From an uncultured Candidatus Saccharibacteria bacterium (GTDB taxonomy: Bacteria > Patescibacteriota > Minisyncoccia > 2-02-FULL-40-12 > GWA2-44-9): a DNA stretch of 64,000 nucleotides. Position numbers and translations under genes: made by a program. Below the pieces are notes generated by a model that saw only the letters and a list, made by a program, of their open reading frames with translations, had not been told where the DNA came from and ran no database searches. Positions 1 to 34,093 of this stretch are shown here, in pieces; within the stretch, counting starts at the first letter, position 1, and every line of letters begins with the position of its first letter. The stretch lies in contig CAYTBY010000001.1 in the NCBI GenBank assembly GCA_964436165.1, positions 73,452-137,451 of the forward strand. Reading direction: 5' to 3'.

Positions 1-2373
1 TTGGGCCTTAGCGTGGGGTGTATAAACCATGATGGAAGCTACTTGTATGACGAAGGTCATACAACAAATCCCAAATCCCAAATCCCAAATTCCAAACAAA
101 TTCCAAATTCCAATGATCCCTCCTTCGCTGAAGCTTCCACCGTCGCTAAAGCTATGGCGGACAAGTCGGCGGGCAGGCAAAATTCAAAAGAAGAAAAATT
201 GGATAAAGAAAGAGATTTAACCGGAAGTTTCCATGTTGTTCATGAATTTTTGCGGCCGGTGACGAAGAAAGAGGCTTATGGCGCCGATATTACCTATGGT
301 ACTAATAATGAATATGGATTTGATTATTTGCGCGACAATATGGCCTACGATTCAAATCAGATGGCCCAAAGAACCGAGCACTCATTTGCAATCGTTGACG
401 AAGTCGATTCTATTTTAATTGACGAAGCCAGAACCCCGCTTATTATTTCCGCTCCCGACATTGATTCCGGAAAACTATACGAGACATTTTCCAGGGTTGT
501 CCCGAGTTTAAAAGAGAATGATGACTACAACGTTGATGAAAAACTCAAAGCTGTTTCTATAACTGAAAGCGGAATTGAAAAAGTTGAGAAAATGCTCGGT
601 CTTTCAAATATTTATGATGAAGGCGGAGTCCGTTATGTCCATCATTTGGAGCAAGCTCTAAAAGCCCAAATACTTTTTAGGCGGGATAAGGATTACGTGG
701 TCAAAGAGGGTGAAATTATTATTGTTGATGATTTCACGGGACGTTTAATGCCTGGCCGGCGCTGGTCGGAAGGTCTTCATCAGGCGATTGAGGCCAAAGA
801 GGGTGTCAATGTTCAGAAAGAGTCCCGGACTTTAGCCACTATTACTTTCCAGAATTATTTTCGTTTGTATAAAAAACTTGCCGGTATGACCGGAACGGCT
901 CGAACTTCAGCCGAGGAATTACACAAAGTATACAATATTGAGGTTATTTCCGTGCCGACAAATAAGCCGGCGATAAGAGGTGACTTAGCCGACAGGATTT
1001 ATAAAACAGAAATGGGCAAGTTCAAAGCAGTTGCCCGTGAAATTAAAGAACGAAACGAAAAGGGTCAGCCGGTTCTTATCGGGACGGTTTCTATTGAAAA
1101 AAATGAACTTCTCTCGATGCTTCTTCAGCGCGAAGGCGTTCAGCATAATATTTTAAATGCTAAAAATCATGAGAAAGAAGCAGAAATTATTGCTCAGGCG
1201 GGGCGCTTAGGTGCGGTGACGGTGGCGACCAACATGGCTGGCCGCGGCGTTGACATAATTCTTGGCGGCAACCCTGTTGAAGTCAAACTTCAACAGGGGG
1301 TGCGGGAGGCGGGGGGACTGCATGTAATTGGCACGGAGCGGCATGAAGCCCGCAGAATAGACGATCAGCTTCGCGGCCGTTCCGGCCGACAGGGCGATCC
1401 AGGTTCTTCTCAGTTTTTTGTTTCGACCGAAGATGATGTTATCCGCGTTTTTGGCGGTGACCGTCTGACGAATCTAATGAATACCCTTGGGATAGGGGAA
1501 GACGATGTTATAGAAAATCGTTTTGTTTCTCGGGCGATTGAGCAGGCCCAGTCAAGGATTGAAGGCCATAATTTTGATATTCGCAAATACGTTCTTGAGT
1601 ATGATGATGTGATGAATAAACACCGTGATGCCATCTATCGTTTGCGCAAAGAAATTTTGTTTTCTGATAATATTAAAGAAACTGTTTTGGGTTATGTTCT
1701 TGATGTCGTTAATCAAATAGTTATTCTCCATGCCCCTGAAGGAGAAACGGCCGAGTGGAATTTAGAAGAAATAGCCGAATCAATCAAAGCCCTTGTTGGT
1801 AGTCCGTCATCCGCCCCTTCTGGCGGAGGCGGAGGTTCTTTGCATTCTGAACTTCTGGAAGTTTCAAGCGATAAGAATTTTCATAAATTGTCAGAATATA
1901 TTCTTGATTATGTGACCAAGACCTATGAGGCTAAAGAGGGGGAAGTTGGAATTGAGATGATGAGACAACTTGAAAAGTTTGTTCTCTTGAGAACAATAGA
2001 CGAACTTTGGATGGATCATATTGAAGCGATGGAGTCGTTGCGTGAGTCGGTTCGTTTACGGGCTTACGGCCAGCGTGATCCGTTGATAGAATATAAAATC
2101 GAGGGTCAAAAAATGTTTGAGAATCTGCAAAATACGATCAAAGGCCAAGTGGCTAACCTCATTTTCAAAGTTTCGTTTATCCAACAACCGTGGGAAGTTA
2201 AGATGGAAGAGCGGAGACCTGATATTGTGGATAACGAATTAAGAAGTAAGAATAATGGTTTGGATGCTCAAAACCAAAATTCAAAATCCCAAATTCGTAA
2301 TTCAGCAGTTGGCCGCAACGACCCTTGTCCCTGTGGTAGCGGGAAGAAGTATAAGAAGTGTCATGGGGTCTAG
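1..2373 (+). CDS. secA: Preprotein translocase ATPase SecA, 5'-partial (ORF enters from window edge)
   Basis: Motifs KEAYGADITYGTNNEYGFDYLRDNMA, MAGRGVDIILGGN and RGRSGRQGDPGSS. C-terminal zinc finger NDPCPCGSGKKYKKCHG. Stop at 2371-2373. Confidence 0.9.
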   Translation: MGLSVGCINHDGSYLYDEGHTTNPKSQIPNSKQIPNSNDPSFAEASTVAKAMADKSAGRQNSKEEKLDKERDLTGSFHVVHEFLRPVTKKEAYGADITYGTNNEYGFDYLRDNMAYDSNQMAQRTEHSFAIVDEVDSILIDEARTPLIISAPDIDSGKLYETFSRVVPSLKENDDYNVDEKLKAVSITESGIEKVEKMLGLSNIYDEGGVRYVHHLEQALKAQILFRRDKDYVVKEGEIIIVDDFTGRLMPGRRWSEGLHQAIEAKEGVNVQKESRTLATITFQNYFRLYKKLAGMTGTARTSAEELHKVYNIEVISVPTNKPAIRGDLADRIYKTEMGKFKAVAREIKERNEKGQPVLIGTVSIEKNELLSMLLQREGVQHNILNAKNHEKEAEIIAQAGRLGAVTVATNMAGRGVDIILGGNPVEVKLQQGVREAGGLHVIGTERHEARRIDDQLRGRSGRQGDPGSSQFFVSTEDDVIRVFGGDRLTNLMNTLGIGEDDVIENRFVSRAIEQAQSRIEGHNFDIRKYVLEYDDVMNKHRDAIYRLRKEILFSDNIKETVLGYVLDVVNQIVILHAPEGETAEWNLEEIAESIKALVGSPSSAPSGGGGGSLHSELLEVSSDKNFHKLSEYILDYVTKTYEAKEGEVGIEMMRQLEKFVLLRTIDELWMDHIEAMESLRESVRLRAYGQRDPLIEYKIEGQKMFENLQNTIKGQVANLIFKVSFIQQPWEVKMEERRPDIVDNELRSKNNGLDAQNQNSKSQIRNSAVGRNDPCPCGSGKKYKKCHGV
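61..115 (+). repeat. Tandem heptamer repeat (CAAATCC/CAAATTC x about 7) inside secA coding sequence, encoding NPKSQIPNSKQIPNS
   Basis: Direct reading: caaatcccaaatcccaaatcccaaattccaaacaaattccaaattcc. A related caaaatcccaaattc recurs near the secA 3' end at about 2263-2300. Confidence 0.6.
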
Positions 2374-6457: not shown

Positions 6458-7588
6458 ATGAATATCGAAATCGGTAAGAATATAATACAAAAAGGAGGAT
6501 TTAAGGCCTTTATCCCTAATACCTTCCCCCCTAGGGGCATTTTTAACCTACCCCAAGATATTTTGATAAAAGCTGCCGAAGCCGATCGTTTAGTCGGTAA
6601 ATTAGATGGGGTAACTCATACACTCCCTGATGTCGATTTTTTTCTCTCGATGTTTGTGGCTAAAGATGCTGAATCTTCTTCCCAAATCGAAGGCACTAAG
6701 GCAACTATCATAGATGCCATGGAGATAAAAGCAGGCGTTGCTATAAAAGATACTGATGCCGATGATATTTTGTATTATATTAAGGCACTAAACTATGGAC
6801 TCAAAAGATTAGAAAAATTTCCTTTATCACTTCGTCTAATTCGGGAAATTCACGCACAACTTATGACTGGAGCTCGGGCAACACATTTTTCAGATCCGGG
6901 AGAGTTTCGTAAATCTCAAAATTGGATTGGCGGCACAAGACCTGATAATGCTTCTTTTGTTCCGCCGACCGTAGAAGAAATGCAATGTGCTCTCAATGAT
7001 CTTGAGAAGTTTTTGCATAATGAAAAATCTACTTTGCCTATTATTCATGTTGCTTTGACCCATGCTCAGTTTGAAACTATACACCCTTTTCTTGATGGAA
7101 ATGGAAGGACGGGCCGATTAATAATTACCATGCTCTTGTGCCACAGAAATATGCTCGAAAGACCAGTACTTTTTCTATCTTCGTATTTCAGGAAATATCA
7201 AAAAGTTTATTATCAAAAACTCCTAGGCTATCATTATGGTGAAGTTGGAGCTTGGCTGAACTTTTTTCTTGATGGCGTGATTGAGACAGCTAACAATGGC
7301 ATTTTAGTTTCAAAACAGATAACTAAACTTCGAGAAGATGATATGGCAAAAATTCTGGCGCTTGCCAAAAGAGAATCGGAAAGCGGTGTTTTGGTGTTGC
7401 AAAAATTATATGCTCAGCCAATTGTTTCAACTCGAAATATTATGAAATGGACTGGCTTCAGTCGGGCTGGCGCCCAAAAACTCGTTGATAGATTTATTAA
7501 TCTTGGTATTCTTGAGCTGAAGGATGAGAAAGAAACATATGACCGCACTTATATTTATGGGAAGTATGTTCAGATCTTTACTCAATAG
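6458..7588 (+). CDS. Fic/DOC family protein (class II, N-terminal inhibitory motif present)
   Basis: Fic core motif HPFLDGNGRTGRL. Putative inhibitory motif SSQIEG, matching (S/T)xxxE(G/N), upstream of the core. C-terminal wHTH-like region. Confidence 0.85.
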   Translation: MNIEIGKNIIQKGGFKAFIPNTFPPRGIFNLPQDILIKAAEADRLVGKLDGVTHTLPDVDFFLSMFVAKDAESSSQIEGTKATIIDAMEIKAGVAIKDTDADDILYYIKALNYGLKRLEKFPLSLRLIREIHAQLMTGARATHFSDPGEFRKSQNWIGGTRPDNASFVPPTVEEMQCALNDLEKFLHNEKSTLPIIHVALTHAQFETIHPFLDGNGRTGRLIITMLLCHRNMLERPVLFLSSYFRKYQKVYYQKLLGYHYGEVGAWLNFFLDGVIETANNGILVSKQITKLREDDMAKILALAKRESESGVLVLQKLYAQPIVSTRNIMKWTGFSRAGAQKLVDRFINLGILELKDEKETYDRTYIYGKYVQIFTQ

Positions 7589-7834: not shown

Positions 7835-7873
7835 TTGCATTTTTAAATTGATGTACGTTATAATGTACGTATG
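7835..7873 (+). promoter_or_regulatory. Sigma70-like promoter with direct-repeat operator driving a leaderless phd-relE transcript
   Basis: TTGCAT, then 18 nt, then TATAAT (7859-7864). ATGTACGT repeats flank the -10 element. The ATG at 7871 lies about 7 nt downstream of the -10 with no SD. Confidence 0.5.
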
Positions 7874-8251
7874 AATATAAAGACAACCATACCTATCTCA
7901 GAAGCTAGGAAAAATATATTTAAAATCTCAGAAAAGATTCAAAAACCTGGTGTTTATTTTACTTTCACTGAAAAAGGCAAACCCAAGGGTGTTATTATGT
8001 CAGCCGAAGAGTTTGAATCTTGGACAGAAACAATGGAGGTTATGCAGCAATTTCCCAACCTTGACAAGGATATTGCCGAAGCTGATAGAGCAATCCGGAC
8101 CGGACAATATAAGAGATATCCCACCCTGGATGATCTTAAGAAGGACTGGGGTTTTAAAGTTGCAGAAAAAGTAAATAAAAAAGATGCCATTTCAATTGTA
8201 TCTAAAACCAAAAGTAAGAAAAAAACTTCAAGATATTCGGGAAAAAGATAG
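7871..8251 (+). CDS. Type II antitoxin, Phd/YefM family
   Basis: N-terminus ISEARKNIFKISEKIQKPGVYFTFTEKGKPKGVIMSAEEFESWTETMEV resembles Phd/YefM. The 3' end overlaps the toxin start. Confidence 0.65.
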   Translation: MNIKTTIPISEARKNIFKISEKIQKPGVYFTFTEKGKPKGVIMSAEEFESWTETMEVMQQFPNLDKDIAEADRAIRTGQYKRYPTLDDLKKDWGFKVAEKVNKKDAISIVSKTKSKKKTSRYSGKR

Positions 8252-13321: not shown

Positions 13322-13355
13322 AATCCACGGGACAGAAACCGTGGATTTTTATTTT
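13322..13355 (+). terminator. Rho-independent terminator
   Basis: aatccacgggacagaaaccgtggatt hairpin followed by tttatttt. Confidence 0.55.
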
Positions 13356-13377: not shown

Positions 13378-14394
13378 ATGAAGAAAAAGAGAGAGATACT
13401 AGTGGCGATTAGCGGCGGTTTTGACCCAATTCATATTGGGCATGTTCGGTTAATACAGGAAGCTGGGAAATTAGGAAATAGACTGGTAGTAATTTTGAAT
13501 AATGATAATTGGCTCAAGAAAAAGAAGACCCATATTTTTATGCATCAAAAAGAGAGGAAGGAGATAATCGAATCAATTGAGGGAGTCGATGAGGTTATAA
13601 TCTCAAGCCATCCTAAAAACCCTAAAGATATGAGCGTCTCGAAGGAAATTTTAAAAATTAAACCCGATATTTTTGCTAATGGTGGAGATAGAAAGGAAGA
13701 AAAAGATATTTTGGAAGGAGAGGCCTGTCGTAAGGTCGGATGCAAGTTGGTTTTTAATGTTGGCCAGGGTGGAAAAATTCAGTCCAGTTCTTGGCTCTTA
13801 ACCAAATATGTCAACAAACTAAAGCCGGTTAGAAAATTAAATATTAATAAGATACTGAACGAACTGAGGATTGTATTTAGGAAATCCAAAATAAAATTTC
13901 CTGAAAAATTACGAATAAAAACATCGAAAATAATCCTTAGATTAATGAATCGTCGTCGGGGATTCGGTCTCTTTATAATTATCGGCTGGCAGGATAAGTG
14001 GCGTAAGTATACCGACTTGCCCGATTCAAGGCAGGATATTTATGTCAGGCACCATCAGAATATTTTAAAACACTACCACAGTCACAAACACGACATTGAA
14101 ACAACCGTTAATTTTGACGGAGCAATTCTTGTCGATAAGAGGGGCAACATTGTTCATTCCGGGATTATTATCGAGGGCTTAAGGCCGGGAGTAATTGCCG
14201 ATAAAATACGTCCTGGCCACTTTAAAGATCTTTCGGAGCAGTTTGGTTTTGGCGAAAAAGTCCACTCTCGGCACTTATCGGCCATAACTTGTTCCTATAT
14301 TTTTAAAGGAACAACGGTCATGACCGTTTCCGAAGAAAATGATTCTTTTCATGTCTTTGAAGGCGGGAGGATAATTTATAAAACTCACAATTAA
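13378..14394 (+). CDS. Fusion protein: N-terminal HIGH-motif cytidylyl/adenylyltransferase domain plus C-terminal diadenylate cyclase (DAC)-like domain
   Basis: N-terminus ILVAISGGFDPIHIGHVRLIQEAGKLGNRLVVILNND (HxGH nucleotidyltransferase). C-terminus GFGLFIIIG…FDGAILVDKRGNIVHSG…HSRHLSAITCS…TVMTVSEENDSFHVFEGGRI aligns with the DAC DGA and RHR(AA)…VSEETG motifs, with the second Arg replaced. Confidence 0.5.
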   Translation: MKKKREILVAISGGFDPIHIGHVRLIQEAGKLGNRLVVILNNDNWLKKKKTHIFMHQKERKEIIESIEGVDEVIISSHPKNPKDMSVSKEILKIKPDIFANGGDRKEEKDILEGEACRKVGCKLVFNVGQGGKIQSSSWLLTKYVNKLKPVRKLNINKILNELRIVFRKSKIKFPEKLRIKTSKIILRLMNRRRGFGLFIIIGWQDKWRKYTDLPDSRQDIYVRHHQNILKHYHSHKHDIETTVNFDGAILVDKRGNIVHSGIIIEGLRPGVIADKIRPGHFKDLSEQFGFGEKVHSRHLSAITCSYIFKGTTVMTVSEENDSFHVFEGGRIIYKTHN

Positions 14395-14457: not shown

Positions 14458-15975
14458 GTGTTAACTATGCAGGCTTTGGAACTATCGCGATGGCCGACCT
14501 TGCAGATTGGCAAGAGTCCGCCGGGGAAGTCGGTCGATATTTTTATTGTTGATTCAGCCAATATCCCACCCGATATTGAAAAGATGATCAAGAGTTCTAA
14601 GCTGTCTTGGAGTAATAAAGGTAATAATCTGATTGTTGCTAAGGATGTTGACTTCGTAAAGATCTTTGCGCCCATCAACTCTAAAAGTCCGAGGAGTCAG
14701 AGAGGAATTCTAAATAGGCTTCTTGAGAAATTTAAATTACTATGTCGGGAAGATTATGCTTTTGATGGATGTAATTTTGACATTCGAACCGATCTATTTA
14801 AGACGGAAGTGCTTGAATCATTCATGCTTGCTTTATATGAATTCTCGTGTTTTAAATCTGAGAAGAACTTGATCAAAGATATCTTTGTGTCTGGTGATCT
14901 GTCGGATGAGGAAATGAGAAGGATAAATAAAATTATTGCGATTCTGCCTTGGGTTTATTTCGTGCAAGATATGGTAAATTATCCTCCAAATTTCAAGCCG
15001 CCGGAAATTTTAGCTGAAACGATAAAAAAGCAACTTCGAGATTTGCCCGATATAAAAATAAATGAATGGGAAGGGGATTCTCTTCGGGATAAGTTTGATC
15101 CTGTTTGGAATGTGGGCAAGGGCTCAGATAATAAGCCGGTGGTTTTAAAAATAGAATATCTTTCCGAAAAACCCGTTAATGCTCAGCCGGTAGTTCTTGT
15201 AGGCAAGGGGGTTTGTTTTGATTCTGGCGGTATGAATGCAAAGATTAATGAAACTTTGGCAGAAATGAAGTTAGATATGGCCGGTGCTGCGGCTGTTGCT
15301 GGTATCTGCGGTTATATTGCTTCACAAAAATGGCCTGTCCATATAGTTGCTTACCTTCCTTTGGTTGAGAATCTACTCGATTCAAGATCCATCAAAGCCT
15401 CAGATGTCGTTTCCTTGCCTACCGTCGTCGACCCCAAAGATAAAAAGGATTTTGAATATATTGAAGTAGTAGATACTGACGCAGAAGGACGTCTTCTCCT
15501 GTGCGCTATGGTAAATCATGCCAGATTATACAACAACCCAGATTTAATAGTTACTGTTGCTACTCTTTGTGGAACGACCGAGGGCATGCTTGGCTCATAT
15601 GCCGCCGCCGCTGTTTCTAAGGTGAAAAAACTTCTAGAAGATATTGAAGCTGCCGGTGTAGCTACGGATGAGAATTATGCTTCTGTTCGGGTGAGTCCTG
15701 ATATGCTCGATGAATGCCAGACCGACATGGAAGGTGAAATTACAGACTGGAAAAATTATAGTAATTCTATTGATAGCGGCGATACCTTGATGGCGTTTGG
15801 ATTAATACAGCATTTTGCGGAAAATGTACCCTTTCTTCACCTAGATATATGTGGAGTAGCATTGTTGAAAGACAGTGTTATATATAAGTCAAAAAAAAGA
15901 AGGCCGAATGGCGCTTCTGGGTGGGGAGTGAGATCGGTTTCTGAGTTTTTAAAGAGACATTTTAACCTAACGTAA
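14458..15975 (+). CDS. pepA: Leucyl aminopeptidase (M17 family)
   Basis: VLVGKGVCFDSGGMNAK and VVDTDAEGRLLLCAM (NTDAEGRL signature). The start may be the ATG at 14467. Confidence 0.85.
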   Translation: MLTMQALELSRWPTLQIGKSPPGKSVDIFIVDSANIPPDIEKMIKSSKLSWSNKGNNLIVAKDVDFVKIFAPINSKSPRSQRGILNRLLEKFKLLCREDYAFDGCNFDIRTDLFKTEVLESFMLALYEFSCFKSEKNLIKDIFVSGDLSDEEMRRINKIIAILPWVYFVQDMVNYPPNFKPPEILAETIKKQLRDLPDIKINEWEGDSLRDKFDPVWNVGKGSDNKPVVLKIEYLSEKPVNAQPVVLVGKGVCFDSGGMNAKINETLAEMKLDMAGAAAVAGICGYIASQKWPVHIVAYLPLVENLLDSRSIKASDVVSLPTVVDPKDKKDFEYIEVVDTDAEGRLLLCAMVNHARLYNNPDLIVTVATLCGTTEGMLGSYAAAAVSKVKKLLEDIEAAGVATDENYASVRVSPDMLDECQTDMEGEITDWKNYSNSIDSGDTLMAFGLIQHFAENVPFLHLDICGVALLKDSVIYKSKKRRPNGASGWGVRSVSEFLKRHFNLT

Positions 15976-16007
15976 GGCCGGCCCAATAGGCCGGTTTTGT
16001 TTTTTAT
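15976..16007 (+). terminator. Rho-independent terminator
   Basis: ggccggcccaataggccgg hairpin followed by ttttgtttttt. Confidence 0.6.
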
Positions 16008-16016
16008 AATTTATTA

Positions 16017-16769
16017 ATGTACAATAATTTTATGTCCAAAGTTGGAACTCTTAAAATTTCACGGAGTGGGTTAAAGCTATTTCTCGAATGTCCGAGGTGT
16101 TTTTGGCTGGATTTGCACCACAAGATTAAAAGGCCGCCCGGATATCCGTATACTTTATCGGCGGCGGTGGATTACTTAGTAAAGAGGGAGTTTGATAAAT
16201 TTAGAGTGGAAGGGACCTTGCCCCCGGTTCTCACCCTGAGCGGAGTCGAAGGGTTAAAAGGTGCTAAGCTTTATGCTGGCGATAATCTTGCCGAGTGGAG
16301 AAATAATTTTAAAGGTATCTCATATTTTGATGAGTCGCTTAATGCAAATTTGTATGGCGCGGTTGACGATGTTTTAGAATTTAAAGACGGGTCATTGGCG
16401 GTTATCGATTATAAATCTTCCGGTTCAAAAGAGATAACTATTTACGATGACTATCAGAAACAGATGGATGTCTATAATTATATTCTTCAGCAGTTGGGCT
16501 ACGAAACATATCCCGAAGCATTTTTTGTTTTCTATCAGGTCATCAAAGAAGGGGAGGATGGTTTTCAAAACGCTTTAAAATTTAAAGAACAGGTAAAAGC
16601 GGTCAAGGTTAATAAGGATTGGGTGGGTCCGGCCTTTGAAGCGGCGGTAGAACTTGCCAGACAGGATTCGCCTCCGGCTCAAAGCGGAAATTCCCAAAAA
16701 CACTGCGACCATTGCCATTACGTCGAGCTGGCCTCTCAATTTAAAATGATCCCAGATTTGAATATTTAA
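16017..16769 (+). CDS. Cas4/RecB-like PD-(D/E)xK nuclease, standalone
   Basis: D…IDYK core (AVDDVLEF…LAVIDYKSS). QxxxY motif (YQKQMDVYNYI). Cys pairs at both ends (LECPRCFWL; HCDHCH) compatible with a Cas4-type Fe-S cluster. No cas genes adjacent. Confidence 0.55.
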   Translation: MYNNFMSKVGTLKISRSGLKLFLECPRCFWLDLHHKIKRPPGYPYTLSAAVDYLVKREFDKFRVEGTLPPVLTLSGVEGLKGAKLYAGDNLAEWRNNFKGISYFDESLNANLYGAVDDVLEFKDGSLAVIDYKSSGSKEITIYDDYQKQMDVYNYILQQLGYETYPEAFFVFYQVIKEGEDGFQNALKFKEQVKAVKVNKDWVGPAFEAAVELARQDSPPAQSGNSQKHCDHCHYVELASQFKMIPDLNI

Positions 16770-17583: not shown

Positions 17584-19023
17584 ATGGCTAAAACACCTAA
17601 ATTATTTGCCGATCATTTTTATAAATTTTTCCAATGTCCGCATTGGATTTGGTACGACATCTATGCCGATGCGACCCAGAAAAAGAAAACCCCGGCGATA
17701 ATTGATATGATATATAAAGGCAAAGTTGCTAACGGAGCTAACATTCTGCGTGAGCATAAAAAATTCGAAGAAATAAAACCCGAGCTTTTACACGATCTGG
17801 AAGAAGCGTTTCTAGCTACTCTTGAAATGATGAAGCAAGGGAAAAATATTTATCATGGCGTCTTAATGCACGAGGATTGGGCGGGGATGCCGGATCTGCT
17901 TGAGGCAAGGCCAGGCAAGTCTAAACTCGGCGATTGGTACTATGTTGTCTATGATGTCCAGGCGTCTCTTGATCTTCGCGATGAGTATAAATTCCAATTA
18001 ATTTTTTACAGTTTAATTCTTGAACGTCTTCAGGGGGTCCGGCCAAAAGAGGCTTATGTTATTGATCCCCAGGGTAATGAGCGGTCTTTTAAAGTAGATG
18101 AATTTGTGGACCAGTTTCATCTGACCCGCGAGCAAATCGAAAAAATCTTGGATGGCGAGAAGCCGGCGCCATTTATTAAATCGACCTGCAAGAAAACCCC
18201 CTGGTATTCTCTTTGTTTCTCCGATGCCAAGGAGTGTAATGACGTTTCTCTGATATTTCGTTTGAGCCAGGCCGATCAAAGGCGATTATATGGTATTGGC
18301 ATTAAAACGGTTAGTGACTTGTCGGGAGCTGATGTGAATGAACTTCAGAATAAGCTAGAGGATTGGTCTTTTGATAAAATTGTCCGCTTTGTAAATCAAG
18401 CCAAAGCCCTTACAAATTATCAGCCGATGGTTTTGCGGAAGCCAATTTTTCCAGAGGTTGAACATGAAATATATTTTGATATCGAAGCCGATCCGACCAG
18501 GGACATCGATTACTTGTTGGGCTATTTGGTGAAAAGCAAGGACGGGGTTAAGTATAATTATTTCTTAGCTAATGATAAAAGCGAAGAAGAGGTGATTTGG
18601 AAAAAGTTCTTGGATTTCTTGGCCAAGCTCGATAATTTCGTTATTTATCATTATGCTTTTTATGAAAGGCAGGTTTTTGACCGCCTCGTTCTTAGATATG
18701 GCGCCCCCACGGTTTTAATCGAAAAATTTAAAGAAAACACTATAGATCTTTATAATAAAACAGTTGATACGGCTGTTCTGCCATTGTATTTTTATAGCCT
18801 AAAAGATGTGGCCGGATACCTCGGCTACAAATGGGATGATCCTACAGCCGGCGGAGCCGAATCTGTTGTCTGGTACAATGATTGGTTAGATAAGCGTGAT
18901 CCCGTGATTATGAAAAAAATCTTAAAATACAACGAAGACGATGTCCGGGCGACCCTCTTGATCAAAGAGTGGCTCGTGAACCAGAAACCCTCAAAACGAA
19001 GGGAAAAGCTGGACGAAGAATAA
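17584..19023 (+). CDS. TM0106-family RecB-like nuclease (N-terminal Cas4-like PD-(D/E)xK domain plus C-terminal RNase-H-like exonuclease domain)
   Basis: N-terminal FQCPHWIWYDIY and Cys cluster CKKTPWYSLCFSDAKEC. C-terminal YFDIEADPTRDIDYLLGY is a DnaQ/YprB-like exonuclease motif. Confidence 0.5.
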   Translation: MAKTPKLFADHFYKFFQCPHWIWYDIYADATQKKKTPAIIDMIYKGKVANGANILREHKKFEEIKPELLHDLEEAFLATLEMMKQGKNIYHGVLMHEDWAGMPDLLEARPGKSKLGDWYYVVYDVQASLDLRDEYKFQLIFYSLILERLQGVRPKEAYVIDPQGNERSFKVDEFVDQFHLTREQIEKILDGEKPAPFIKSTCKKTPWYSLCFSDAKECNDVSLIFRLSQADQRRLYGIGIKTVSDLSGADVNELQNKLEDWSFDKIVRFVNQAKALTNYQPMVLRKPIFPEVEHEIYFDIEADPTRDIDYLLGYLVKSKDGVKYNYFLANDKSEEEVIWKKFLDFLAKLDNFVIYHYAFYERQVFDRLVLRYGAPTVLIEKFKENTIDLYNKTVDTAVLPLYFYSLKDVAGYLGYKWDDPTAGGAESVVWYNDWLDKRDPVIMKKILKYNEDDVRATLLIKEWLVNQKPSKRREKLDEE

Positions 19024-21300: not shown

Positions 21301-22356
21301 ATGGAAACAGGAACGTCGAACCCGTCCTCTCTGTCCGACTTCGTCGGCGGAAAGGTAAAAGGATTTTGGGAGCGAAAAGAAGGAACTACCGGAATGGCAG
21401 TTGTCGCTCTCGCTGCCGTTGCAATTTTTGTGGGTTGGGGAGTGATCGTGCCATTCATTGTAGCGACTCTGCTCAATACTATTTATGCCGGGATTCTCAT
21501 CGTGGCGCTTGCTTTCATGTTAGCTACCCGTGGAGTATGGGTATCCATGTTCCAGAGTGCTTGTCGGGGTTTGACCCGCCTTTGGGCGAATATCGACCCG
21601 ATTGGTATCATGGAAGAAGATTTACGGCAGGATAAAAAAGAGCTTCTTGCTTTGGATAAGAATATGGACGAGCTTTCCGGTCAGGTTGAAGGTCTTCAAA
21701 AAGATGAAGAAAGTACAAAAGATAGTATTAATCAGGCTATGCGAGCTACTAAACAGGCAAGAGACAAGATTCAATCAGGAAAATTATCTTCTGCTGATCA
21801 GGAGGCGATGAATCGTCAGTTAATGCTTAATGGCAATGATGCCACTCGTAAGCAGGATTATCTCAAGTCTTTACTAAATCTCATGTCCACCCTGAAAGAT
21901 ATTTATAAGATGGCAGAGAAATGGCGTGGTCATCTTGATTATTTAATTCAGGATCGCGAAAATTTCATCACCATTTCAAAGAAAAAGCGTAGGATGTCAA
22001 TTACTGGCAATAACATCGTGAACAGGATGAAGGGTATTCTCCATGTCGATCCCGATCGGGTATATATGCTGAATGCAGCCATTGAAGCGCAAGCAGCACA
22101 ATACAATCAGCGTGTAGGTACGATCAAGAATTTTGTACGCACTTATCGAGACACTTTAGTTAAAGGTGACTTACAGAATGAAATGCATGCTCAGCAGGCG
22201 TTGCGCCAACTTGAAGAGTGGGAACGTCAACAGGGTGAGGCTGCTATTCAGCAGATCGAATCGAGAGATTTGAGTATGGCTGAGGTACATCCTCTTGCTG
22301 TATCGGCATCGGAAGTGAAAGCTTCCACTACGGAGCGGGCGAAGTATTTTCAATGA
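21301..22356 (+). CDS. Membrane-anchored (2 TM) coiled-coil protein, possibly PspA/IM30-like
   Basis: N-terminal TM helices (MAVVALAAVAIFVGWGVIVPFIVATLL; ILIVALAFMLA), then about 250 aa of predicted helix. WANIDPIGIMEEDLRQDKKEL loosely resembles the PspA N-terminus. Coupled RBS aggagag. Confidence 0.35.
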   Translation: METGTSNPSSLSDFVGGKVKGFWERKEGTTGMAVVALAAVAIFVGWGVIVPFIVATLLNTIYAGILIVALAFMLATRGVWVSMFQSACRGLTRLWANIDPIGIMEEDLRQDKKELLALDKNMDELSGQVEGLQKDEESTKDSINQAMRATKQARDKIQSGKLSSADQEAMNRQLMLNGNDATRKQDYLKSLLNLMSTLKDIYKMAEKWRGHLDYLIQDRENFITISKKKRRMSITGNNIVNRMKGILHVDPDRVYMLNAAIEAQAAQYNQRVGTIKNFVRTYRDTLVKGDLQNEMHAQQALRQLEEWERQQGEAAIQQIESRDLSMAEVHPLAVSASEVKASTTERAKYFQ

Positions 22357-22377
22357 GTCTTGGCGGCGGGCAGTAGT

Positions 22378-22407
22378 GTTTAGGGACAGAATCCTCTGTC
22401 CCTAAAC
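22378..22407 (+). promoter_or_regulatory. Perfect 13-bp-stem hairpin in the leader of the ABC transporter operon
   Basis: gtttagggacaga-atcc-tctgtccctaaac; not followed by a T-run. Lies 48 nt upstream of ATG 22455. Confidence 0.4.
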
Positions 22408-22454
22408 ATCGGAAACACGGCGGCGGAGAAAGAGAAAGAAAAAGGAGAAGGGCC

Positions 22455-24029
22455 ATGATCGACTGGACCAAACCAATTCCGAAATTCGGGCGCATCCTCG
22501 TAGCGGTGCTCGTTCTCGTTATGGGCGGGCGCTATCTGTTGAGCAAGACTGGTGTCACAACCAGTTCTGGCTCAACGTCAGCTATTCCGGCGGCACCGTC
22601 ATCAGGTGGTGCGTTGTCGGGCCTGACAAATCTGTTCAGCGGCAACAAGCCGTTGACGGTCTGCACCAATACCTGGGGCGGATATGCTGCGATGTACTAC
22701 TACAACGGCGGTAACACACCGTCCAAGGACTCCCGTTTCTATAAGGAGCAGGGCGTCCAGGTCGGTTTCGTGAATATCGATCCGCTTGGAGAATCGCGCG
22801 ATGCATGGAAATCTGACAGTTGTCAGGTTCTGTGGGTCACGGTTGACAGTTTTCCAACGGAATCGGCGGACTTGGCAGGGCTGAAGCCGAAGGTTTTCGT
22901 TCAGTATGACTGGTCGCGAGGCGGCGACGTTGTTATCGGCAGCGCCTCAGTTCGTTCGGTTCGGGACTTGCGCGGGAAGAAAGTCGCAGCAGCGACTGGC
23001 TCGCCTTCAATGACCCTTCTGGCCAAGCTCTTGGAAGCCGGTAGTCTTCGATATAGCGATATCGAGTTCATCGGTACTGATTCAGCTCCGCAAGCTGCGG
23101 AATTATTTAGGGCCGGGAAGGTTGATGTGGCCGTTGTCTGGTCGCCTGACGATCAGGATGCCCTAAAGGCAGTGTCCGGTTCTCGGGTATTGATGAGCAC
23201 GAAAGACGTGCCATATGCCATTGCGGACGTTTTGTACGCGAAGGAGTCGGTCATCAACGAACGCAGGGAAGATCTGGTCGGATTTACGGCCGGAGTTCTT
23301 ACGGCGTCGGCTGAACTGAATGCCAGTTCATCGGTTCGCAAACAGGCGGCGGCAGTTCTTGCCAAGGCAATGAAGCAGGACGTCGGATTCATGGAAGGCG
23401 CCGTTGAGAACGTGAGGTTCACGACTTACGGCGACAACCTTTCATTCTTCGAGATGACGGGTACCTCCAGAGGCTCTGTTACGGGCCAGGAGCTCTACAG
23501 TCAGATGGGCGCTACGTTTGCCGAACTTGGGTTAGCTCCCAATTCCTTGCCGAGCTGGCGGTCATTGACCGACACCTCGATCTTGGAAGCGGTGGGTACG
23601 AAGCTCAAGGCGACAGGTGATCAGGCGGCCGAAGGTGCCTTCAAGTTCTCGGCGCCGACTGCCGCAGAAGCGAGTGCGGAAGCATTTGCCACCAAGCACC
23701 TAACCGTTAACTTTGCAACAGATTCAGCCGAGCTTGATCTGGCTGCCAAGAAAACGATCGACAACGCTTTGGCGGGTACGGCTAAGTCATTTGCCAGTGT
23801 TCGGGCCCGTATCGTCGGCAACACCGACAATACCGGGTCGGCTGCCCATAACAGAGAACTGTCTCAACGCCGGGCTAATGCCGTGGCCGAATATCTTGTC
23901 AGAACTTATGGGTTTGACAAGAATCGATTTACGTCGCGGGGCGACGGTCCGGATAATCCGGTTGTGCCGAATACTACGCCTGAGGGAAGAGCCCAGAACC
24001 GCAGAACCGATTTCGAGCTAACCAAGTAA
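22455..24029 (+). CDS. ABC transporter substrate-binding protein (NitT/TauT-like) fused to a C-terminal OmpA/MotB peptidoglycan-binding domain
   Basis: N-terminal TM anchor. Periplasmic-binding-protein-like middle region. C-terminal NTDNTGSAAHNRELSQRRANAVAEYLV…RAQNRRTDFEL is an OmpA_C-like signature. Confidence 0.6.
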   Translation: MIDWTKPIPKFGRILVAVLVLVMGGRYLLSKTGVTTSSGSTSAIPAAPSSGGALSGLTNLFSGNKPLTVCTNTWGGYAAMYYYNGGNTPSKDSRFYKEQGVQVGFVNIDPLGESRDAWKSDSCQVLWVTVDSFPTESADLAGLKPKVFVQYDWSRGGDVVIGSASVRSVRDLRGKKVAAATGSPSMTLLAKLLEAGSLRYSDIEFIGTDSAPQAAELFRAGKVDVAVVWSPDDQDALKAVSGSRVLMSTKDVPYAIADVLYAKESVINERREDLVGFTAGVLTASAELNASSSVRKQAAAVLAKAMKQDVGFMEGAVENVRFTTYGDNLSFFEMTGTSRGSVTGQELYSQMGATFAELGLAPNSLPSWRSLTDTSILEAVGTKLKATGDQAAEGAFKFSAPTAAEASAEAFATKHLTVNFATDSAELDLAAKKTIDNALAGTAKSFASVRARIVGNTDNTGSAAHNRELSQRRANAVAEYLVRTYGFDKNRFTSRGDGPDNPVVPNTTPEGRAQNRRTDFELTK

Positions 24030-29812: not shown

Positions 29813-30961
29813 TTGACTTCTATAACTAATAATGCTATTGTATGTGGAGGTACAATAGACTATCATAGGGTCATGTCAAATCAAGCAGTAATAACCAAAA
29901 CGGTCGCTTCTTTGGTAAAAAATATATCAACTCGCAACAAGGATATTATATCCAGGCGTTTTGGTTTGAAAACAGGCAAAAAGGAGACTCTGGAGTCGAT
30001 AGGCAAGAGCTATGGAATTACCAGGGAAAGAGTAAGGCAGATAGAGGAATTTTCCATTAACCAGTTGTCTAAGGTTGTTGCTTCGACTCCCGATGTTTCA
30101 AAATACGTTTCTTTGGCCAAGGAAATACTAGGCGGTAACGGGGGGGTGATGAGGGAGGCTGAGTTATTTAAAGCATTTAGCGGAAACGATAAGGAGAGTG
30201 TTGTAAATGCCTCGCTTGTTTTTATTCTTTCTCTGGCCGGCGAGCCTGCCTCGCCGACTCGCCTCGCCGAAGCCTCCGGCGTAGCGCGGGCAGGCGGGCC
30301 GGTAAGATTCGGTGAAAACGAGTCATACTATTCCTTCTGGGGTTTAAATAGGGAAAGTGCCGATATGTTTAAAAATGGGATTTCTGCCCTGGTCAGTTCA
30401 TTTGCAAAAAACGGAAGCCCGGTGGCTTATACCGACTTGGTTTCTTTTGCCCAGGCTAACAGCATCTCAAATTCTAAAGACGTTGTGGTTTATTTGAATT
30501 TGAGCAAGGAGCTTGGAAGAAATGTTTTTGGCCAAATTGGTTTAGCCAGTTGGGCCGAAGTAAAACCAAAAGGAGTCAGAGATAAAGCCTATTTGGTTTT
30601 GAAGAAAGAGAAAAATCCAAAACACTTTACCGAGATTGCCAAACTTATAAACTCAACCGGTTTTTCTGATAAGAGAGCTAATGTTCAGACTGTTCATAAC
30701 GAACTGATTAAGGATAAAAGATTCGTTTTAGTCGGCCGTGGAATGTATGGGTTATCGGAATGGGGTTATCAGCCGGGTACGGTCAAAGAAGTGTTGGTCA
30801 GCGTTCTCAAGAACCATGGCAAGCCCTTAGCCAAGGCCGAACTTGTGGCCAAGGTTTTGGATACCCGAATGGTCAAAGAAAACACAATATTATTAAATCT
30901 TCAGGATTCTAAAGTTTTTTCAAAACGGGAAGACGGAACTTACGTCTTAAAAAAGGCGTAA
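29813..30961 (+). CDS. Putative transcription factor: sigma-70 region-4-like HTH near the N-terminus plus C-terminal HARE-HTH-like domain
   Basis: TLESIGKSYGITRERVRQIEE is a sigma-70 region 4.2-type motif. C-terminal WGYQPGTVKEVLVSVLKNHGKPLAKAELVAKVL…FSKREDGTYVLKK is a HARE-HTH-like pattern. The probable start is ATG 29873. Confidence 0.45.
   Translation: MTSITNNAIVCGGTIDYHRVMSNQAVITKTVASLVKNISTRNKDIISRRFGLKTGKKETLESIGKSYGITRERVRQIEEFSINQLSKVVASTPDVSKYVSLAKEILGGNGGVMREAELFKAFSGNDKESVVNASLVFILSLAGEPASPTRLAEASGVARAGGPVRFGENESYYSFWGLNRESADMFKNGISALVSSFAKNGSPVAYTDLVSFAQANSISNSKDVVVYLNLSKELGRNVFGQIGLASWAEVKPKGVRDKAYLVLKKEKNPKHFTEIAKLINSTGFSDKRANVQTVHNELIKDKRFVLVGRGMYGLSEWGYQPGTVKEVLVSVLKNHGKPLAKAELVAKVLDTRMVKENTILLNLQDSKVFSKREDGTYVLKKA
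30233..30305 (+). repeat. GC-rich palindromic element inserted in frame in the 29813 gene (encodes LAGEPASPTRLAEASGVARAGGPV)
   Basis: ggccggcgagcctgcc…cgccgaagcctccggcg…ggcaggcgggccgg has nested inverted repeats. About 75% GC inside an approximately 38% GC gene. Confidence 0.5.
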
Positions 30962-31061: not shown

Positions 31062-32315
31062 ATGACTTCTTTTCTTTTAATACTAAATACTTTTAAGACG
31101 GTCTTTGTCCTCCTTATCTCCATTTGGTGGCTTTACTTACCTGTCTTTTTATTTTTACTATCCTATCTCGCCGTTAAAAACTATACTAATCTCAAATACC
31201 GCCTCTCTCTTGAGTGGACACTTCTTGAAATAAAAGTTCCAAAAGAAAATCGAAAAAGCCCCAAGGCGATGGAGCAGATTTTTGCCGGTTTACATGGCGT
31301 TTATACTATTAAAAAAAAGTGGCATAAGATATTTTTTAAGGGCGAGATGCTGGCTTGGTTCTCTTTTGAAATAGTTGGCAAGGGTGGTGAGACCCACTTT
31401 TATGTAAGAACTCAAACTGAATACAAGAATGTGGTAGAAGCCCAGATATATGCCCAGTATCCGGAGGCAGAAGTCGTTGAGTCGGTTGACTACATTAATG
31501 ATCTGCCCCTCTATTTGCCTGATGATAAATATGACCTGTGGGGAACTGAGCTAATTTTAAACAAGGAGGATGCCTATCCAATAAGAACTTATCCTGAATT
31601 TGAAGAAAAAGGAACCGGTCCGGAAGATGCAAAAAGAGTAGATCCAATGGCATCTATATCTGAGCTTTGCAGTACTCTTCACGCCGGTGAGCAGATCTGG
31701 CTTCAAATAATAGGTACTCCGATAGGAGATGATTGGATAAAGAAAGGCCAGGCCGTACTTGATAAGCTTATGGGTAAGGAAGCGGTCAAAAGCGGAAACT
31801 TTCTTTCTGATATGGTTTTTGCCATAGATAAGGCAATTAGCGGAATCGGCAGTGTTCCGGTTGATAAAAAAGAAGAAAGGAAAGAGAGAGTTAACTTAAG
31901 TCCAGGCAAAGAGGATATAATGAAGGCCATGGAAAAAAGCTGGGATAAGCTTGGGTATCAAACCGGCATCAGGTATTTATATATCGGACCTAAAGATAAT
32001 TTCCATCAATCCCACGTCGCCGGTATTAACGGTGCTTTTCGGCAGTTCTCTTCCCAAAATTTAAATGGTTTCAAATCGAATAAATACACCATAACTCACG
32101 CTAGAGGCTTATTTAAAAATTCAAAACTTTTAACGAGAAAGAAGGCCATTTATCAGGCATTTAGGGAGAGGCAGGTCATGCTTTTTAAATATGTGCTTAA
32201 TACTGAAGAATTAGCTACTATTTACCACTTACCGGATATTGGAGTCAGGGCGCCGTTATTGCCTAGAGTTGAGGCCAAGAGAGGTGAACCCCCGGTAGGA
32301 TTGCCAATTACATGA
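31062..32315 (+). CDS. Membrane protein (N-terminal 2 TM plus large soluble domain), partner of the downstream ATPase
   Basis: ORF overlaps the next gene by ATGA (32312). Hydrophobic N-terminus FVLLISIWWLYLPVFLFLLSYLAV. Confidence 0.45.
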   Translation: MTSFLLILNTFKTVFVLLISIWWLYLPVFLFLLSYLAVKNYTNLKYRLSLEWTLLEIKVPKENRKSPKAMEQIFAGLHGVYTIKKKWHKIFFKGEMLAWFSFEIVGKGGETHFYVRTQTEYKNVVEAQIYAQYPEAEVVESVDYINDLPLYLPDDKYDLWGTELILNKEDAYPIRTYPEFEEKGTGPEDAKRVDPMASISELCSTLHAGEQIWLQIIGTPIGDDWIKKGQAVLDKLMGKEAVKSGNFLSDMVFAIDKAISGIGSVPVDKKEERKERVNLSPGKEDIMKAMEKSWDKLGYQTGIRYLYIGPKDNFHQSHVAGINGAFRQFSSQNLNGFKSNKYTITHARGLFKNSKLLTRKKAIYQAFRERQVMLFKYVLNTEELATIYHLPDIGVRAPLLPRVEAKRGEPPVGLPIT

Positions 32316-34093
32316 TTAAAAAAGATAAAGATATTGTTGTTATCGGTGAGACGAATTTTCGCAATCAGCGTTGGCGATTTGGCATAAAAGAAGATGACCG
32401 TCGGCGCCATATGTATGTGGTTGGTTCAACGGGAATGGGCAAGACAGAATTCTTGAAGAATATGGCCATTCAGGACATTGAAGCCGGCCGGGGCCTTGCC
32501 TTTATTGACCCTCACGGCGATTCAGCCGATGCCCTTCTTGACTATATTCCAAAAGAAAGAATAAAAGATGTCATTTATTTGGATCCTGGCGATCTGTCTT
32601 TTCCGATTGCTTTCAATGTGATGGAAAAAGTTGATTTTGAGTTCAGGCATTTGGTTGCTTCCGGCTTGCTTGGTGTATTTAAGAAAATATTCGGCATTGA
32701 GGTTTGGTCGGGAAGGATGGAATATATTTTAAATAATACTATCTTGGCCTTGCTAGAATATCCAGATGCGACTCTACTCGGCATAAATAAGTTATTGTCC
32801 AATAAGGAGTATAGGAGAAAGGTGGTTGATAATGTAAAAGACCCGATAGTAAAGTCATTTTGGGTTGATGAGTTTGCAAAATATACAGAAAGATTTGCCG
32901 CCGAAGCGACGCCGGCTATTCAGAATAAGATCGGTCAGTTTATTTCTAACAATCTTATTCGCAATATCATCGGCCAAGTCCATTCGACTATTGATATCAG
33001 AAAGATAATGGATGAGGGCAAAATTTTAATAGTCAATATTTCCCGCGGTAAAATAGGGGAGGACGCTTCGCGTTTGCTTGGTGCTCTTTTAGTAACCAAG
33101 ATTCAGCTTGCCGCCATGTCGCGGGTTGATATTCCGGAGAACCAGAGAACGGACTTCTATCTGTATGTAGATGAGTTTCAGCACTTTGCCACAGAGTCAT
33201 TTGCTAACATTTTATCAGAAGCCAGGAAATACCATTTAAGTTTAATTATGGCTCATCAATATATAAAGCAGATGGAAGAACATGTGATGGATGCGGTTTT
33301 TGGCAATGTTGGTACGATTGTATCTTTTAGGGTTGGTGCGGAGGATGGCGAATTTTTGGAAAAATGGTTTCAGCCTGATTTCATGATGAATGATATTGTC
33401 AATCTTGGTAAATATAATATTTACATAAAGTTAATGATAGACGGCGTTTCTTCAAGAGGTTTTTCGGCGGCGACTATCCCGCCCCTTCCCGAGCTTGAAA
33501 AGTCGAATCGGGAAGAAGTGGTTGACTATTCAAGAAAAACATATGCTACCTCAAGAGAAATTGTTGAGAAAAGTATTGCCGAATGGGCGGGAATGGATGG
33601 TGAGGAGCATAAAAAAGAAGGCTACAGCGGACCAAGGCCGGACTCAAGACCTAGACAGCCATATGCGACATTTGAAAGACGGGGGGAACCGTCACAATTT
33701 CAAAATCAGCGTCCACAGCAGTCATTTAATCGGCCACCAGCTCCTCTCCCTAGTCAACTCATTAGGCCACAACCAGGGTCAGTTCAACCGCAAACCATAC
33801 CTCAGATACAACCTCAACCAGTGCAACCCAAGTTTGAACAGAAACCGCAGGTCCAGTTACAGTCTAAATCGGAACCAGCCCAATCACAACGACTGAGCGA
33901 AGAGCGAGGGAGTACTGAGCATAGAAATGCGAATGTACCCTCATCCGGGCTACCTTTAAATGAAGCCCTTAAAACCGGTCCGGTTAATTTTCGTGGCAGG
34001 AGGATAGAAGATAAAAGAGAAAAACCAAAAATTGAAGTTGATACAGATGCTCTCAAGAAGATCTTGGATGAGGCGATGGGAAAAAAGGAATAG
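32312..34093 (+). CDS. TraD/VirD4-like (type IV coupling protein / FtsK-HerA superfamily) ATPase with C-terminal P/Q-rich low-complexity tail
   Basis: Walker A VVGSTGMGKT. FIDPHGD, a DPxGD-type motif of TrwB/TraD-like proteins. Walker B LYVDEFQHF. …MAHQYIKQM. Confidence 0.55.
   Translation: MIKKDKDIVVIGETNFRNQRWRFGIKEDDRRRHMYVVGSTGMGKTEFLKNMAIQDIEAGRGLAFIDPHGDSADALLDYIPKERIKDVIYLDPGDLSFPIAFNVMEKVDFEFRHLVASGLLGVFKKIFGIEVWSGRMEYILNNTILALLEYPDATLLGINKLLSNKEYRRKVVDNVKDPIVKSFWVDEFAKYTERFAAEATPAIQNKIGQFISNNLIRNIIGQVHSTIDIRKIMDEGKILIVNISRGKIGEDASRLLGALLVTKIQLAAMSRVDIPENQRTDFYLYVDEFQHFATESFANILSEARKYHLSLIMAHQYIKQMEEHVMDAVFGNVGTIVSFRVGAEDGEFLEKWFQPDFMMNDIVNLGKYNIYIKLMIDGVSSRGFSAATIPPLPELEKSNREEVVDYSRKTYATSREIVEKSIAEWAGMDGEEHKKEGYSGPRPDSRPRQPYATFERRGEPSQFQNQRPQQSFNRPPAPLPSQLIRPQPGSVQPQTIPQIQPQPVQPKFEQKPQVQLQSKSEPAQSQRLSEERGSTEHRNANVPSSGLPLNEALKTGPVNFRGRRIEDKREKPKIEVDTDALKKILDEAMGKKE

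Follow-up and report, generated by a model that had tools for sequence, protein, structure and literature searches.

A HIGH-signature nucleotidyltransferase fused to a divergent diadenylate cyclase-like domain of RH-L type in the Candidate Phyla Radiation

Diadenylate cyclase (DAC) domains, the synthases of cyclic di-AMP (c-di-AMP), reportedly fall into 22 families in Galperin's 2023 DAC census. The gene considered here lies in a stretch of 64,000 nucleotides (hereafter the window) from an uncultured Candidatus Saccharibacteria bacterium (GenBank assembly GCA_964436165.1, contig CAYTBY010000001.1, positions 73,452 to 137,451 of the forward strand). It encodes, in one protein, a nucleotidyltransferase with the HIGH signature and, C-terminal to it, a domain homologous to DACs in which the second arginine of the Arg-His-Arg (RHR) motif is replaced by leucine. 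Its product is most probably a remodelled cyclase, and the replacement proves to be a property of a whole family of proteins from the Candidate Phyla Radiation (CPR), most of which stand alone.

The ATP site of CdaA, against which the new domain can be read residue by residue, is formed by the side chains of Leu131 (in the GALI motif), Asp171, Thr202, Arg203, His204, Ser222 and Glu224 together with main-chain contacts from Leu188, Gly201 and Glu223, ten residues that do not include RHR's second Arg; Ser222 belongs to the ATP site and Glu224 is metal-binding (PMC7288161). Tyr187 of the same protein stacks on the adenine (PMC10167629), and in Staphylococcus aureus DacA it is T207 that is the phosphate-contacting threonine (PMC6368335). 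Mutation of RHR to AAA in Mycobacterium tuberculosis DacA abolishes ATP binding and activity (PMC3328451), and the first Arg of the motif was found essential in DacM by point mutation (bioRxiv 10.1101/2022.03.11.483894); a mutation of the second Arg by itself was not found in the literature. A likeness of domain architecture is offered by the 'NadD' of Mesomycoplasma ovipneumoniae, in which a CTP_transf_like domain is joined to an HD-type c-di-AMP phosphodiesterase (PMC12879401). There too a HIGH transferase is combined with a c-di-AMP-metabolizing domain in a genome-reduced bacterium, but its partner is a c-di-AMP-degrading HD hydrolase and its transferase is of NadD type, whereas here the partner has the DAC fold and the transferase is of TagD/HldC type.

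The gene (Table 1) is a single unbroken open reading frame (ORF) encoding 338 amino acids. At least 120 full-length homologs are 62-100% identical to it and all of about 335-350 residues, the closest being from metagenome-assembled genomes (MAGs) of Candidatus Yanofskybacteria, Taylorbacteria and Paceibacterota, which marks the source as a member of the CPR (Patescibacteria), Yanofskybacteria-like within the Paceibacteria. The fusion of a HIGH nucleotidyltransferase with a DAC-homologous domain, which an earlier note on this DNA had reported from the letters alone, is real by Pfam, profile and Foldseek evidence within one ORF, and the sequence blocks on which that report drew are where it had placed them: GGFDPIHIGH at residues 13-22, GFGLFIIIGW at 195-204, FDGAILV at 246-252, HSRHLSAIT at 296-304 and VSEEND at 317-322. 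Public gene calls begin at a GTG at 13402, downstream of a purine-rich AGAGAGAG stretch, giving a protein of 330 residues, 8 shorter; the ATG at 13378 supplies the full first beta-strand and agrees with the N-termini of homologs, which favour it over the GTG. The identical protein, in its GTG-start version, is recorded from an NCBI contig of 152 kb and from two metagenome assemblies, where its neighbours are the same. The highest Kyte-Doolittle score over 19 residues is 1.08, so that no transmembrane segment is predicted, and the protein is, as judged from its sequence, soluble, cytoplasmic and of bifunctional type. The AlphaFold2 (AF2) model of the full-length protein has a predicted local distance difference test score (pLDDT) of 80.9, and in a Foldseek comparison with it no chain in the Protein Data Bank (PDB) spanned both halves.

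Assignment of residues 1-140 to the cytidylyl/adenylyltransferases, made in the earlier note, stands, the domain reaching to residue 145. Residues 12-104 match Pfam CTP_transf_like (PF01467) with 50.5 bits against a gathering threshold (GA) of 21 (E 3e-13), and TIGR00125, whose cut-off is 27.7, is matched with 47.1 bits. The best of the specific models are rfaE_dom_II/HldC (66.7 bits against 181.5) and TagD (TIGR01518; 58.6 against 165.4), and an equivalog-level score is reached for neither HldC/RfaE domain II nor TagD. Sequence matches in the PDB are 3glv, 1coz, 2b7l and 3elb (ECT and TagD being among these), and Foldseek with the full-length AF2 model yields 3glv, Fom1 CyTase, TagD and HldC with target-normalised TM scores of 0.69-0.76. 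TagD, HldC/RfaE domain II and the archaeal homologs of 3glv type, its best matches by both sequence and structure, share its fold, size and HxGH...SS(S/T) motifs; from TagD and HldC it differs in an unusual invariant NNDNW-x3-KK segment and in its sub-equivalog scores, and among the Foldseek PDB matches no solved relative of the TagD/HldC/3glv type bears a DAC domain. On this evidence the domain is a HIGH-signature nucleotidyltransferase of the glycerol-3-phosphate cytidylyltransferase/heptose-1-phosphate adenylyltransferase group. Among transferase-containing relatives H22, S137 and S138 are kept in all 29 and H19 in 27 of 29, R60 and K50 are invariant, and D43 and K49 occur in 29 of 30; the SSS motif falls in a loop of low pLDDT (residues 129-137). 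With the HxGH, SSS and other conserved residues intact, the transferase domain, which by its group would act on sugar or polyol phosphates, therefore looks catalytically competent.

For the C-terminal half, where an alignment to DACs over residues of about 190-338 had been claimed, the alignment to the Pfam DAC model (PF02457) runs from profile position 10 to position 118 of 119, with 20.5 bits for the full-length protein and 23.9 bits (E 3e-5) for the half alone, the GA being 27. About a third of the close homologs have a precomputed PF02457 match, and no NCBIfam model matches this half. A narrow family profile of 30 sequences (A2) found three PDB matches, all of them diadenylate cyclases, at E 0.19-0.3. 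It was replaced for the PDB search by a broader superfamily profile of 79 sequences that includes peripheral clusters (A4), which found 14 sequences at E<=0.01, again all diadenylate cyclases, with a best E of 3.9e-6 and with DGA aligned on DGA, RHL on RHR and SEE on SEE. AF2 modelled residues 149-338 confidently (pLDDT 87.7, predicted TM score 0.86), and the top 50 PDB matches to this model in Foldseek are all DisA, CdaA, DacM or CdaS (probability 1.00, E ~1e-5). Because the matches of the profile in the PDB and of the model in Foldseek are exclusively DACs, the C-terminal domain is to be regarded as a true, highly diverged DAC homolog with a predicted DAC alpha/beta fold. The profile search and the comparison of a predicted structure with CdaA, both proposed in the earlier note as ways of finding out whether a significant DAC match was lacking, thus bear out its alignment: CTP_transf_like scores above its GA, DAC scores below its own and is significant through the A4 profile, and CdaA is among the fold matches. 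With a single sequence the outcome was otherwise, phmmer against the PDB giving for the C-half spurious matches to His-tag and tobacco etch virus (TEV) protease sites only (HYHSHKHDIETTVNFDGA), which were discarded. A His-rich segment at 14074-14127 (residues 233-250, YHSHKHDIETTVNFDGAI) attracts such false matches to His6 and TEV-site tags; phmmer of one peripheral family member (P0340) found no PDB match.

Ahead of the DAC core AF2 places helices at residues 156-168 and 176-192, with an invariant S170 in this leader region, and within the core there is a family-specific insertion of ~15 residues at about 266-281, with a helix at 270-277, that adjoins the adenine-binding loop. CdaS (DacB), the YojJ-DAC protein (for example PDB 2fb5, from Bacillus cereus), is likewise small and soluble with two N-terminal helices before its DAC domain, as are the standalone CPR proteins of ~187 residues described below, and residues 149-338 of the fusion protein have the same layout. 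2fb5 ranks 17th in Foldseek for the C-half, at ~16% sequence identity. However, there is no match to YojJ (PF10372) at E<=1, the predicted helix pair being an analogous one, and the fusion protein further differs in having RHL for RHR, the insertion and the fused transferase. With the DAC domains of CdaA/DacA and DisA the C-half has in common the fold, the collinear GALI-like, DGA, RH and SEE motifs and the listed ATP-site residues; it differs from them in falling below the Pfam threshold, in the leucine for the second Arg and in having His-x in place of the Gly-Thr that precedes RHR. Unlike CdaA and CdaM, the fusion protein has no N-terminal transmembrane helices and, unlike DisA, no Pfam match to the DisA-linker or HhH domains.

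Conservation at the active site was counted over 58 fused and standalone relatives, with counterparts taken from profile alignments to PDB DACs (Table 1). The counterpart of Leu131 lies within GFGLF, at the start of the Pfam DAC match, and its correspondence to GALI is by position only. The V317-S-E-E320 motif is invariant, as is Lys294, which, like His296 and Leu300, is specific to the clade. The GxRHRxA motif is not matched, the segment reading H-S-R-H-L-S-A. By this comparison strict constraint acts on that side of the pocket which holds adenine, ribose and metal, and the phosphate side is remodelled. The replacement of the second Arg by Leu that had been pointed out is confirmed, L300 being present in all 58 relatives, but it is no peculiarity of the fusion, since it is invariant in a CPR family made up mostly of standalone proteins. 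As the second Arg lies outside the list of CdaA ATP-site residues, its replacement alone is no argument for inactivity. The threonine counterpart is not conserved, and triphosphate binding must therefore differ from that of canonical DACs.

A search with residues 149-338 showed that the same half, inclusive of its two leader helices, is a standalone protein of ~187 residues in many CPR lineages, among them Azambacteria, Yanofskybacteria, Wolfebacteria, Uhrbacteria and other Parcubacteria; there its invariant motifs are unchanged, and it starts at about residue 150 of the fusion protein. Some standalone copies have been automatically named 'diadenylate cyclase' or 'DisA', and the fused form is annotated merely as a cytidylyltransferase. 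An exhaustive HMMER search with A2 through 1.84 billion representatives retrieved only 109 clusters at E<=1e-3; almost all have R-H-[L/I/T/S/Y/F/H/N], and RHR is found in one. Of ten weak peripheral clusters that were scanned, two pass the Pfam DAC threshold. Two distant RH-x members (P0289 and P0318) are labelled as archaeal MAGs, one as 'archaeon' and one as Candidatus Woesearchaeota, and, with these as the two named examples, the RH-x clade may be common to the CPR and the DPANN archaea, two groups of ultra-small symbionts.

The joining of the two genes was surveyed in 55 species-representative genome loci with flanks of up to 6 kb. The fused ORF occurs in ~20 of them, so the halves are not separate in all relatives, as the earlier note had allowed they might be. 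Five loci (L001, L028, L030, L035 and L038) have a separate transferase gene of ~150 codons directly upstream of a standalone DAC-like gene, and in ~30 the DAC-like gene has no such transferase within the flanks. The pair in L001 is 61% (transferase, 147 residues) and 56% identical to the halves of the fusion, with the break at about residues 145-153. When the DAC-like domains are arranged in a neighbour-joining tree, the split-adjacent forms make up one clade and the fused forms another nearby; because the latter form a single clade, the tree indicates a single origin of the fusion, in a Yanofskybacteria-like clade of ~20 species. One further relative (P0243, at L062:61-1068) has an RH-L DAC-like domain with an N-terminal NUDIX hydrolase domain and no nucleotidyltransferase; it is on a single contig of 1.8 kb, beside a sigma-70 gene.

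The reading that is preferred, with a probability of roughly 0.55, would make the protein a DAC-type cyclase, remodelled yet active, that is coupled to a nucleotidyltransferase of cell-envelope type. The DAC-like domain would be a catalytically active adenine-nucleotide cyclase, possibly the sole DAC of these genomes, whose most probable product would be c-di-AMP, formed by head-to-head dimerisation of DAC-like domains, with the two leader helices perhaps having a CdaS-like role in oligomerisation or regulation. Activity is suggested because the catalytic-type residues are invariant though the sequences share only ~50% identity, and because the domain normally stands alone, unlike an accessory sensor. 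It is suggested more weakly that the fusion, its transferase being of a normally dimeric kind that activates envelope precursors, might couple signal synthesis to precursor supply, by analogy to the control of CdaA by GlmM in Firmicutes, the model for such coupling (PMC8573169; PMC6368335).

Several observations weigh against it. The RHR motif that is taken to define DACs is not intact, with the caveat that the AAA mutant of the M. tuberculosis enzyme also lacks the Arg and His that are retained here, and 19 of the 58 relatives have Leu or Ala at the counterpart of the phosphate-contacting Thr. The gathering score of PF02457 is not reached by the fusion protein, the transferase scores below the equivalog cut-offs and the envelope coupling is an analogy. 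Nor does the 64-kb window hold a recognizable c-di-AMP phosphodiesterase, receptor or riboswitch: Rfam finds in it no c-di-AMP riboswitch, its one match being a tRNA, and Pfam finds among the main ORFs no DHH/DHHA1, PgpH-type HD, PstA/DarA or RCK_C domain, and no canonical DAC.

Altered chemistry is one alternative, in which a DAC-fold enzyme is active but takes ADP or another nucleoside triphosphate, or makes a linear or mixed cyclic dinucleotide, and the RH-x clade of CPR and DPANN would be a distinct family of signalling or metabolic enzymes. In its favour, the phosphate side of the pocket is remodelled systematically, with His296, Lys294 and Leu300 invariant and clade-specific and position 297 variable, the adenine, ribose and metal side being kept. 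The insertion beside the adenine-binding loop, the acceptance of ADP by some canonical DACs (PMC3328451; bioRxiv 10.1101/2022.03.11.483894) and the nature of the fusion partners, nucleotidyltransferase and NUDIX, both enzymes of nucleoside diphosphate-X chemistry, are in keeping with it. As the Phe/Tyr stacking residue and the geometry of the adenine loop suggest that adenine is still the base, and parsimony favours the only known reaction of the DAC family, this is unlikely. A catalytically dead domain is doubtful to a similar degree. It would bind ATP, ADP or c-di-AMP and so regulate the fused transferase or, where it stands alone, other partners. Loss of the second Arg in all 58 relatives, the variable Thr counterpart and the sub-threshold match to the curated DAC model can all be read that way, the NUDIX fusion in one relative fits a portable regulatory module, and degenerate GGDEF and EAL receptors are a precedent (PMC7288161). 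Degenerate sensor domains, however, typically lose the ligand residues that are here invariant or conservatively kept, namely the listed CdaA adenine, ribose and metal contacts with the metal-binding Glu and the Asp of DGA among them, and in most lineages the domain is standalone, without a neighbouring enzyme that it could regulate. A degenerate DAC receptor is not, to our knowledge, on record. The two possibilities raised in the earlier note, a divergent cyclase and a sensor regulating the transferase, accordingly fare differently, the former being the more likely and the latter less so for a domain that is usually without a transferase. Finally, an artefact, whether a chimeric assembly or frameshift joining two genes or a chance match to DAC motifs, could be suspected from the sub-GA Pfam match and the tag matches that were all that a single-sequence PDB search gave, and is effectively refuted by the same single ORF in ~20 independent species-representative genomes and many metagenomes and by profile and fold searches that yield diadenylate cyclases exclusively.

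The surroundings of the gene are of a housekeeping kind. A gene order of HPF, SecA, [transferase], DAC-like, ..., PDDEXK_1 and Cas4/RNase_H_2 is conserved and is shared by the window (Table 1), SecA being present in 23, PDDEXK in 25 and Cas4/RNase_H in 14 of the Paceibacteria loci. Because of this shared synteny and the lack of a PADLOC match, the fusion gene looks like a core gene that is neither mobile nor concerned with defence; a role like that of the cyclic oligonucleotide-based antiphage signalling systems (CBASS), or another in defence, was considered and is unsupported, PADLOC having no match for the protein. The nuclease pair may be functionally linked to the DAC-like gene, keeping in mind DisA and DNA integrity, or may be merely syntenic. 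A gene for a Fic/DOC protein (6458-7588) and one for a Phd/YefM-type antitoxin (7871-8251), both on the + strand between the SecA/S9-peptidase genes and the fusion locus, look like insertions when set against the adjacency of SecA and DAC-like genes in other genomes. Since the next strong hairpin on the + strand follows the gene for an M17 aminopeptidase downstream, the fusion and M17 genes may form a two-gene transcript. In the split-adjacent clade a conserved ORF of ~105-128 codons lies directly 3' of the DAC-like gene, and elsewhere it is a few kb away (L001:6561-6947, L038:4242-4616, L035:6580-7104 and others). It has no Pfam match and contains the motifs W-T-x-H-V/S-K-x-K-M-x-Y-Y-G-I/L-S and I-I-S/T-A-W-R-Y-P-G. 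The notion that this ORF (~123 codons) encodes a PII-like c-di-AMP receptor was rejected on that lack of a Pfam match, its inconsistent adjacency and the absence of a homolog in the window.

Elsewhere in the window the genes are mostly on the + strand and the GC content is ~36-46%, apart from one segment of 54% (22001-24000). In this segment an ORF of 524 codons (22455-24029, +) encodes an NMT1/THI5-like periplasmic binding protein with a C-terminal OmpA domain and is followed by genes for an ABC permease and ATPase, and the region is possibly a horizontally acquired transporter. The sole HD-domain phosphohydrolase of the window is a protein of 421 residues with HD and HD_assoc_2 domains (34662-35927, +), which by Pfam is not a c-di-AMP phosphodiesterase of PgpH (7TM-HD) type. 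Other genes, all on the + strand, are for a Sigma70_r4 and HARE-HTH protein (29813-30961), a homolog of TrwB/TraG-like type IV coupling proteins (32312-34093) and a small PaaX_M/Cas2-like protein (49105-49623).

Table 1. Features of the fusion gene and its surroundings (window positions) and counterparts of DAC active-site residues, with their conservation in the 58 relatives.
Feature	Position	Strand	Basis	Conservation
Whole gene, nucleotidyltransferase + DAC-like (stop codon included)	13378..14394	+	ORF list, at least 120 homologs	
N-terminal HIGH-signature nucleotidyltransferase, residues 1-145, TagD/HldC/3glv-like	13378..13812	+	Pfam, TIGR00125, PDB, Foldseek	
HxGH (H19-I-G-H22) nucleotide-binding signature	13432..13443	+	conservation among transferase-containing relatives	
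S136-S137-S138, counterpart of ISTT/SSS phosphate-binding motif	13783..13791	+	aligned to 3glv SSS	
Linker and two amphipathic helices, residues 146-192	13813..13953	+	AF2, standalone homologs	
Core with DAC fold (residues 193-338), of the divergent RH-L type	13954..14391	+	Pfam sub-threshold, profile vs PDB, Foldseek	
L198, counterpart of CdaA Leu131				55/58
D247-G248-A249 (DGA), counterpart of CdaA Asp171-Gly-Ala, ribose/metal site	14116..14124	+	aligned to CdaA hDGA	58/58
F282, counterpart of adenine-stacking CdaA Tyr187	14221..14223	+	profile alignment to 7l8n	54 F, 4 Y
H296-S297-R298-H299-L300, counterpart of G-T-R-H-R	14263..14277	+	aligned to CdaA GTRHRAAI	
H296, counterpart of CdaA Gly201				58/58
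S297, counterpart of CdaA Thr202				S26, L13, T13, A6
R298, H299, counterparts of CdaA Arg203, His204				58/58
L300, counterpart of second RHR Arg (Arg205)				58/58
S318-E319-E320, counterpart of (V/I)SEE (CdaA Ser222-Glu-Glu224; Glu224 metal-binding)	14329..14337	+	aligned to VSEETG	58/58
Terminator-like hairpin between upstream GH57 gene and fusion gene	13322..13347	+	9-bp stem, 5 GC pairs, then T-run; consensus match only	
M17 aminopeptidase gene, downstream	14458-15975			
Next strong terminator-like hairpin, after M17 gene	15972..16000	+	12-bp stem, 6 GC pairs, then T-run; consensus match only	
SecA	1-2373			
PDDEXK (PD-(D/E)XK nuclease)	16017-16769			
Cas4-like/RNase_H	17584-19023			

A full-text literature search returned no relevant paper on c-di-AMP signalling in the CPR, and in a survey of Pfam/InterPro style 0% of gut Patescibacteria were DAC-positive (PMC12901056). 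The present family, lying just under the curated DAC threshold and with its fused form named a cytidylyltransferase, would be missed by such censuses. The RH-x clade, apparently confined to ultra-small host-dependent lineages, might conceivably, though the odds are rather against it, be something other than an ordinary c-di-AMP synthase: a degenerate DAC receptor, the first natural one, or an enzyme of DAC fold for a different nucleotide signal. The Yanofskybacteria fusion would then be a direct link, unknown until now, between the activation of envelope precursors and nucleotide signalling. An inactive domain would count as the first degenerate DAC sensor. An active one would be a new DAC sub-type for minimal genomes and would show that the 'defining' RHR motif can do without its second Arg, and the fusion would be a natural Rosetta-stone link of a precursor-activating enzyme of TagD/HldC type to c-di-AMP synthesis, paralleling the way in which CdaA and GlmM tie cell-wall metabolism to c-di-AMP in Firmicutes. 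By the homology presented here this is a divergent DAC sub-family, for the most part unannotated, whose fusion to a transferase is confined to one lineage, and because standard annotation misses the DAC-like half, signalling of c-di-AMP type may be present in the CPR without having been noticed.

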